Assembly (NCBI RefSeq): GCF_902652985.1
Contig: NC_047033.1
Span: 17,918,001 to 17,982,000, forward strand
DNA from: Pecten maximus
Taxonomy: Eukaryota
Length of the DNA stretch: 64,000 nucleotides
Direction: 5' to 3'
Made by a program: the position numbers and the translations under genes. The notes under the pieces are model-generated. The model did no database searches. It was given only the letters and a program-made list of their open reading frames with translations, and was not told where the DNA came from. Below are positions 42,421-44,557 of this stretch, piece by piece. The stretch's first letter is position 1, and the number at the start of each line of letters is the position of its first letter.

Positions 42421-42988
42421 AGTATACGTTATATTTCGTTAACAGAGATTAAACAAACGACAGTGTATACGATAACCTATCGTGTATCTGAAATAGCCAA
42501 CCTTTAATGGCCCAAATGATTATTCCTCCAACGAATATAACAAAATACAAAATGTAGTATATACTGTAGGCCTAGTCCGTATGTTGGACATACGTATGTG
42601 TGTGTGTACATGCGTATAAGATTTTAAATTCCTTAGTATACACACATGTGCTAGCCTTGCGGGTTAACACTGGGTCTATAGATAATAGAATAAAAAGACT
42701 GGTTTTTTTTTAATATGTACAACATTTTATTTTCCCCGTCGCGATGGAATGAATATAGGTCGGAGAGCCATCCCACATCCATCCTTACAAAGAATACCTA
42801 CTCTAAAATGGACAACGTGATTTATTTACAACTAATTGAGAGCCATCTATCACCCATATTATGGTACTCAGATGATCTGTGTCGCTTGTACACCTTTTGC
42901 CATGATGCATTGCCAGATTGAGTATAAATAGACCTAAAGCCTGAAAACTTGTCATTTCATACCTGGACACCGAAGAGAAGACATCGAT

Positions 42989-44557
42989 ATGAAGCACCAG
43001 TGTCATATTTGCTGCAGAGAATACATTTGGCCACATGATTTAAAACGCCACGTAAGACAAAAACATATGGAAGTTTGTCATGATGATGAATTCAACAAGC
43101 AGCAGCCTTCCTACACAGATGTAATGAAGCAGTCAGACGATTTGGTATTAGCCCAGCAGCAGCAGCAGCGGAAGCCATCTTATATAGACGTTATGGAGCA
43201 GTCTGTAGATGATGTATTACCTCAGCAGCAGCAGGATTTTGTTTTTGAACACCCCTTTACTGCAAATGTATCGGGGCCTACTTCTTGTGGAAAGACTTAC
43301 TTTGTCAAGTTACTGCTACAAAACTGCTTGACCAAAATAAAACCAGCTCCACAGCGAATAATATGGCTGTACAAACGATGGCAACCTCTCTATGATGTCA
43401 TTAAGGCAACCGTAATACCAAAGGTAGAATTTCTCCAAGGGATACCGCTGGATATAGAACAGGACTCCTTCTTAAATCCACGAATAAGGAACCTTATCAT
43501 CTTGGATGATTTGATGTCGACATCGAGCAAGGACCCTCGTATAAACGAATTGTTTACGGAAGGTAGTCACCACAGAAACCTGTCTGTCATTGCCATCAAT
43601 CAGAATCTCTACTATAATAAAGACCCAACGCAGAGAAGAAATTGTCACTATTTGGTTTTGTTCAATAACCCTATCGATAAACAACAGACTTTAGCCAGAC
43701 AGATGTATCCCGAAAACACCTCATGAGATACTTCAAAGATGCCACCCAAAAGCCATATGGATATCTTCTCGTCGATTTGAAGCCATCAACATCAGAGGCA
43801 TTACGCATGCGCGGTGTTATTTTTTCTATGCAGTCTGTAAAAGGACAGAAAGATCAAACTAAGGCTCATTTTCAGGCTGACACTCCAACCAAGCAGACGT
43901 ATTCCAAGCAGCAGCAGCAGCAAACTCTAGACGATACACATCTTCAACAAGAAGATATGCCTGCCTGTGACGATTGTGGTATCATGTTCCAAGACATGCA
44001 CGATTTACAGAGACACTTGAAAACCTGGTGTCCAGAAAACGATTCTAGGAAAAGAAAACGAGAATCCATAGATGAAGAAGAGGAACCGAAATCCAAAAGA
44101 TGGATCCCATTTGAAGAAATAGAATCCGAAGATGATACTATCGAAAGTGAAGAAAATGAAGTTTTTAATTCCTTGATGAATGAAGCAGAGTCTTTGAATG
44201 AGGATAAATGGAATCAAAAGTATGAGAAATACGTAAACGAGGGCATGTCTGATGACGAAGCACAAACAAAAGCAAACGAGAAGATGGAATCTGAAGTTAT
44301 GAAGCAATTTTCACCACAATTATAAATCCATTATCCAGTACATTCTTCAGCTACGAAATGGTATGATCCACGAAAAGATCATGGAAGATGTCACTGAATT
44401 CATAGACGATGGATATGGAGATAGTAAAGCGATCAAGATGGCACTTAAAAAGAATCGTCATGTTTTAGAAGAGTTGTGGGACGATGACTCCGAAGATGAT
44501 GGATCAGACGATGACTCTGAAGTTGATAAATCGGATGATGACTCCGAAGTAGTGTAA
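42989..44557 (+). pseudogene. Polinton A32/FtsK-like DNA-packaging ATPase fused to zinc fingers and an acidic tail; two frameshifts
   Basis: C2H2 CHIC...DLKRHVRQKH; Walker A HPFTANVSGPTSCGKT; Walker B LIILDDLM; LFTEGSHHRNLSVIAINQNLY. The ATPase tail FKDATQKPYGYLLVDLKP lies in the next frame (43723..44325), followed by CDDC...DLQRHLKTWC and RKRKR. A second shift near 44310 leads into 44363..44557. Confidence 0.85.

Follow-up and report, generated by a model that had tools for sequence, protein, structure and literature searches.

A short Polinton derivative in Pecten maximus with a zinc-finger-fused ATPase as its only gene, and the three-gene Polinton family related to it

The window analysed here, a 64,000-nt stretch of Pecten maximus contig NC_047033.1 (assembly GCF_902652985.1), contains a short element, called the mini below, which is most probably (a probability of roughly two thirds) a non-autonomous Polinton derivative that arose through junctions at short sequence matches, owes its copying and insertion to polymerase and integrase from its relatives, and carries its finger-fused ATPase gene as a passenger. 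Taken alone, the mini is a minor deletion derivative of low copy number. Through it, a multi-copy bivalve family of three-gene Polintons without detectable capsid genes was found, in which the ATPase is conserved as tightly as the integrase. The point worth testing is that a finger-fused ATPase is conserved where no capsid gene is found, in a genome that also has separate capsid-coding Polintons.

The mini has a length of 4,466 bp (40892–45357), AGTAGT-type ends and long inverted arms, and is flanked by a target duplication of 6 bp, where 5–8 bp are expected for an autonomous Polinton (Table 1). The last left arm and the right arm are 94.5% identical over 804 columns. The core between them measures 1,722 bp (42831–44552), in line with the ~1.7 kb of the original prediction, which had also found the core free of polymerase, integrase, protease and capsid genes; no such frame fits there according to the open-reading-frame list. 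Among the frames of the core, neither a protein-primed B-family polymerase (pPolB) nor an rve integrase was found, and for double-jelly-roll capsid, penton and protease genes the mini has no space and gave no match. An array in the left arm had escaped the prediction: 382-bp units, each opening with the terminal motif, start at 40892, 41274 and 41656, with a fourth start at 42038, an arrangement that suggests re-initiation slips at the element end. An internal short match to the terminal motif lies where each unit restarts. Elsewhere in the window, an uninterrupted frame of 1,035 aa that includes a furin-like cysteine-rich region (35861–38965, minus strand) stands 1.9 kb left of the mini, and a reverse-transcriptase fragment (29689–31290, minus strand), six copies of a 146–180 bp repeat (47399–48349) and a TIR-domain exon (49562–49930, plus strand) were observed.

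The only gene of the mini encodes, in this order, a C2H2 finger, a Q-rich linker, an A32-like ATPase, a C2HC finger, the motif RKRKR, a helical domain and an acidic tail. The predicted parts (C2H2 finger, duplicated linker, A32-like ATPase, C2HC finger, RKRKR and acidic tail) were all recovered, as was the TATA motif at 42922, and the stop codon (44555–44557) lies, as predicted, just inside the right arm, which begins at 44553. From its start codon at 42989, the gene is spread over three frames (42938–43726, 43681–44325 and 44303–44557); for the one repaired frame of ~520 aa that had been proposed, the uninterrupted frame of the sister copy has 532 aa, and two breaks are present here. Compared with contigs from public runs, only the first break was borne out: it is bridged (near 43714–43720) by an identical contig in X1/X2 (two runs of the same size, likely one data set), whereas those contigs listed for X1/X2 and X3 that cover the second, near 44308, do not carry it, and it may be an assembly error or private to the window copy. 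In X1/X2 and X8, runs that may be RNA and whose contigs show neither level nor ends, contig depth increases toward the end of the gene.

From the spacing read in the sequence, finger 1 is of C2H2 and finger 2 of C2HC type; the Pfam zf-C2H2 score of finger 2 falls under the cut-off. The first frame of the gene matched Pfam Pox_A32 with 25 bits (cut-off 22.8). In an alignment of 46 proteins, the Walker A pattern is present in 42, the second finger in 42 and the first finger in 29. RKRKR at 44047 is likely a nuclear localisation signal. In the structure model, finger, ATPase core, finger and helical domain follow one another with disordered linkers between them. The modelled core resembles FtsK/HerA-type proteins and STIV2 B204 with middling scores: B204 (Z 7.3, rmsd 3.7, 159 residues aligned) was tied with VirB4/HerA-type proteins, a comparison with an adenovirus IVa2 model gave E 7.5e-5, and a Foldseek search of the model against the PDB gave no match at E 0.001. 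For the helical C-terminal domain, the structure search with the full-protein model gave no clear fold match.

Table 1. Features of the mini and its insertion site (positions in the window)
Feature	Position	Strand	Basis or comment
Target-site duplication, 6 bp, left copy	40886..40891	.	
Whole non-autonomous element, 4,466 bp	40892..45357	.	Ends and target duplication read in the sequence
Three extra 382-bp units of the left arm's outer part, head-to-tail	40892..42037	+	
Left inverted arm	42038..42830	+	Inner ~115 bp are the family's end-of-gene repeat, inverted
Inverted piece of the post-pPolB/integrase repeat	42831..42902	-	Left junction, short match at about 42895-42902
TATA-like motif	42922..42930	+	Same as in parents; putative promoter
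Fused gene	42989..44557	+	Frames, Pfam, structure model; frame breaks at about 43714-43720 and about 44308
Duplicated linker, two 68-nt copies, 75% alike	43098..43234	+	
Walker A motif	43274..43297	+	
Second (C2HC) zinc finger	43966..44032	+	
RKRKR, putative nuclear localisation signal	44047..44061	+	Presumed function
Right junction	44547..44563	+	ATPase end fused on short match to end-of-gene repeat
Right inverted arm	44553..45357	-	
Target-site duplication, 6 bp, right copy	45358..45363	.	

The 918-Mb genome was searched with the core, giving at least 80 matches (best 40 of 87 candidates scored), and with the finger-plus-helical part, giving 88 matches (all 106 candidates scored), where matches are pieces and not copies. 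At most of these places a long polymerase frame lies on one side of the fused ATPase gene and an integrase on the other. Seven such parents, 6,883–11,326 bp in length, were mapped arm to arm, six of them with a clear 6-bp duplication; their genes are pPolB, the fused ATPase and an integrase with rve domain (PF00665, E 4e-15) and chromodomain. The long frame carries Exo and Pol motifs, which we take to be those of B-family polymerases; Pfam and PDB searches with it gave no polymerase match. In one copy of this frame (L048:821-4774), two C2H2 fingers at the start and a weak endonuclease VII-like match were observed. Three gene orders (tandem, divergent and convergent) occur among the parents. 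Six loci (L191, L192, L193, L195, L197 and L230) form a divergent subfamily of convergent order, with integrase, ATPase and a polymerase facing them, and gave no capsid match within 10 kb.

Fifteen distinct uninterrupted fused frames of at least 450 aa were found among the loci taken from the genome, and because 14 of them lie outside the mini, in larger elements, the fusion was inherited from the parents. Its invention by the mini was rejected, as the parents carry it and it recurs across bivalves: 457 database proteins match the fused ATPase at E 1e-10, the named ones coming from scallops, mussels, clams and pearl oysters. Judged from these sequences, the finger-ATPase fusion is old. The autonomous Polinton expected to share the arms of the mini was recovered in part: related three-gene elements carry the fingered ATPase, and no parent with exactly the window's arms plus all three genes was found, near-identical arms being present on fragments and on other derivatives.

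Derivatives with other gene sets comprise part of the ATPase with an integrase, a polymerase only, an integrase with an ATPase, and a palindromic pair. The palindromic derivative (L065:5177-10000 and L066:1-4263) consists of two outward ATPase-integrase blocks around a polymerase fragment. A solo arm (L052:8290-9146), 98.6% identical to the window's left arm, stops just before the mini junction and adjoins an arm of another family. L210 was considered as a second ATPase-only element and rejected, since it retains the natural end of the gene, shows no left arm within the stretch and does not have the junction in common. The junction of one other derivative was tested and proved single-copy, spanned by 1 of 13 matches, which is a small point for the mini being more mobile.

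In the parents, a ~200-bp repeat follows both the polymerase and the integrase. At the left junction of the mini, an inverted copy of this repeat meets the promoter on a short match; at the right junction, the ATPase gene lacks its last codons, and stop codon and AATAAA come from the end-of-gene repeat. The original prediction had read the tidy fit of promoter, reading frame and arm as an argument against a random deletion. This argument no longer holds, because both junctions fall on short sequence matches, from which the fit follows, and the repeat supplies the stop.

The left-junction pattern and the right-junction pattern each occur exactly at two places in the 918-Mb genome, with 0 places for the reversed control. 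The second mini has a length of 3,029 bp, a 6-bp target duplication of its own, and an uninterrupted 532-aa fused frame with Walker A/B and both fingers. Its flanks are unrelated to those of the window copy, and a segmental duplication was rejected as its source since the flanks share nothing. With more than one insertion having the same junctions, and with its sequence traceable to an autonomous family of this genome, the mini counts as a non-autonomous derivative. The counter-case of a single-copy deletion from a fusion-bearing Polinton therefore fails on copy number, there being two places per junction, and stands as to the inherited fusion. Further carriers were seen in public runs: the left junction is bridged by contigs from X1/X2 and X8, the right junction by a contig from X3, and contigs of X1/X2 and X8 represent a third mosaic variant whose TATA motif carries a substitution.

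Aligned over 1,662 bases, the two minis show 100 differences. In 81 cases both alleles are present among 19 parent-type rows, and in no case are both absent. Per 100-bp window of the middle region, each mini is mostly 97–100% identical to some parent and 80–91% to the other mini, whereas the final 260 bp are 98–100% alike in the two minis and 89–98% identical to the best parent. This pattern fits one origin followed by repeated exchange with the parents. The outer arms also differ between the copies, and the left arm of the second (L031:3607-4540) is a chimera with an outer part of one arm type, a short L062-like piece and an inner part of the window type. Patchwork interiors, differing outer arms and a chimeric left arm would also be produced if the rearranged interior had been copied between integrated elements by ectopic gene conversion, without transposition, both target duplications then belonging to older insertions of full elements. 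We regard such conversion in place as quite improbable: the two outer arms within each copy agree (in the second, 99% over 283 bp), as end-copying in replication gives, the same left junction is present in variants from other samples, and precise conversion across both junctions between chromosomes would be needed.

For a non-autonomous derivative, the following course is proposed. Template switches or deletions at short matches, in the manner of copy-back, would have taken place during protein-primed strand-displacement replication, so that the fused ATPase gene came to lie between duplicated element ends and the mini kept, as cis-acting parts, just the ends that it needs. Intact relatives would then supply the polymerase and integrase that replicate the mini and insert it in trans, as the target duplications suggest; the mini would co-replicate and recombine with its parents, and its ATPase gene would be a passenger without selection for any advantage to the mini. 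A derivative of this kind is supported by the two insertions, which have the same junctions and target duplications of their own, by the short-match junctions and by the patchwork alleles; against it stand that the only other derivative tested is single-copy and that no parent with both the exact arms and all three genes was found. The passenger role is opposed by the retention of the complete gene, including its promoter, stop and a poly(A)-like signal, and by the uninterrupted second copy, both of which selection would also give.

As to packaging, the mini had been predicted to hijack that of a helper. In the ~9.9-kb parents, the sole free interval, from the left arm to the polymerase, has no frame longer than 112 aa. 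Capsid-module proteins of this genome, used as probes, matched 0 of 59 stretches (L031-L090) and 0 of 40 further fused-ATPase stretches, 28 of which hold pPolB and 32 an integrase; most of the searched stretches are 10 kb long. None of 36 fused-ATPase places has a scored capsid match closer than 75 kb (best 96 of 200 candidates). Since no capsid module was found in the arm-sharing relatives, hijacking of their packaging would not be possible. What stands of the predicted satellite is its derivation from a Polinton, its presence in more than a single copy and a likely dependence on a helper for copying and insertion; packaging by an arm-sharing helper does not. The genome also holds canonical Polintons, found via distant pPolB places, with stand-alone ATPase frames of 223–245 aa, a protease-like frame and a ~440-aa protein, the model of which matches the capsids of Sputnik, iridovirus and PBCV-1 (E 2e-12). 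On the strength of this model, Polintons coding for a double-jelly-roll capsid protein are present in this genome. The arms of the mini have their matches in three-gene relatives and fragments and not at capsid-gene places (best 96 of 200 capsid candidates).

Pairwise dN/dS values of the parent ATPase core were 0.03–0.13 (15 of 28 pairs with measurable dS, 13 being saturated), compared with 0.07–0.19 for the integrase (15 pairs) and 0.08 for the polymerase (one pair); the pairs are not independent and the copies are mosaic. The parent ATPase is clearly under purifying selection although the element carries no capsid gene. A quick, midpoint-drawn tree was computed from 57 ATPase cores, two rows without an open frame having been omitted. 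It places 38 rows, nearly all of them fused, in one group (SH-aLRT 91) that is separate from the stand-alone ATPases of the genome. Capsid-module genes adjoin four of these 38, and three longer-frame rows stand outside the group in an open fork. Because one metagenome contig has the full fusion adjoining a capsid gene, the fusion likely predates the loss of the capsid. On metagenome contigs L133 (120-3773) and L122, a finger-fused ATPase was observed beside capsid, penton or protease genes. A scan of IMG/VR for relatives gave none that was confirmed.

The same kind of value between the two minis (dN/dS of 0.11 and 0.29) is low because it is inherited from the parents, the differences being parental alleles. 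Of the multiple copies with an intact frame under purifying selection that had been anticipated, the search thus yielded two copies, one with the intact 532-aa frame; they do not show selection on the mini's own gene, as the window copy is broken and the differences of the copies are parental. This bears on whether the mini could be a satellite under selection, keeping and expressing the fingered ATPase to aid replication or packaging of its own DNA with pPolB and integrase of the three-gene parents and capsids of the separate capsid-coding Polintons. Such a satellite would agree with the full gene with promoter and AATAAA, the uninterrupted second mini with Walker A/B and both fingers, the at least three mosaic variants including those in public-run contigs, the double-jelly-roll capsid Polintons in the genome, and the single-copy control derivative. 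We nevertheless consider it unlikely: there are just two copies in 918 Mb, the window copy is broken and its first break recurs in the identical X1/X2 contig, the X1/X2 and X8 variant has a substituted TATA motif, short matches account for the junctions, the low dN/dS comes from the parents, and the mini-arm matches do not coincide with capsid-gene places.

For the parents, a conserved ATPase means either a second, non-packaging job or elements that borrow capsids. Most likely, it would be kept because it handles DNA at the ends of its own element, or because it helps to borrow capsids from other Polintons. Taken further, the whole three-gene family may be a capsid pirate that lost capsid, penton and protease, its fingered motor selecting the family's own DNA and loading it into the capsids of unrelated Polintons in the host, and the mini being a satellite's satellite, a proposal that we put forward as doubtful. 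If true, capsid piracy would be a P4/PICI-like tier of parasitism in animal Polintons, missed by screens that require capsids.

In copy-back defective genomes, ends are duplicated by template switching, and capsid-pirating satellites such as P4 or PICIs depend on a helper. To both, the mini is alike in manner of working and not by homology, and a packaging factor coded by the satellite is part of the comparison only if capsids are pirated. Conservation of the ATPase is a standard argument for Polinton virions in the sections drawn on of PMC4028283 and PMC11131425. The coral genome screen described in part of the latter demanded capsid genes, and a screen of this kind would miss the three-gene family. 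General features of Polintons were taken from sections of PMC3014272, PMC5499653, PMC8502044 and PMC11414722, and 96% of vertebrate Polinton copies are degraded according to a section of PMC8097293. In the literature covered, a scope that left outside Repbase, the founding papers of 2006–2007 and the mollusc-Polinton supplements of bioRxiv 10.1101/2023.08.22.554363, which may bear on novelty, no ATPase-only mini and no three-gene bivalve Polinton was found.

Canonical Polintons or Mavericks, as described in part of the same preprint (bioRxiv 10.1101/2023.08.22.554363), have 13–25 kb and capsid genes. The mini shares with them the long inverted arms, the 6-bp duplication and an A32/FtsK-like ATPase, to which the parents add pPolB and the rve integrase; it differs in having neither pPolB nor integrase, and the parents differ with a length of 7–11 kb and a set of three genes, in which capsid, penton and protease were not detected. 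The parent ATPase, moreover, is a finger fusion of 460–590 aa, whereas that of the capsid-coding Polintons in the same genome stands alone with 223–245 aa. Of the capsid-less elements in the sections drawn on of PMC4028283, nine are also without protease and ATPase. Two entries in its Table S1 (2014), P_Pd1.1 (Platynereis, 10,777 bp) and P_Gi1.2 (Glomus, 11,019 bp), are capsid-less with an ATPase and resemble the parent family in similar size and in lacking major capsid protein, penton and protease; they are single table rows, likened by table entries and not by sequence, and the table and accompanying text parts give nothing on fingers, copy number, selection or minis. Closest to the mini in kind are the non-autonomous Polintons Polinton-1N1_DR, Polinton-2N1_DR and Polinton-N1_NV (PMC4028283, Table S1) and the mobile, polB-less polintons of butterflies (bioRxiv 10.1101/2025.02.07.637071), which, as far as these sources go in part, are likewise bounded by arms, lack core enzymes and are apparently still mobile. 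These non-autonomous Polintons have 11–15 kb, those of zebrafish being without ATPase and that of the anemone keeping capsids, whereas the mini has 3–4.5 kb and carries the ATPase alone.
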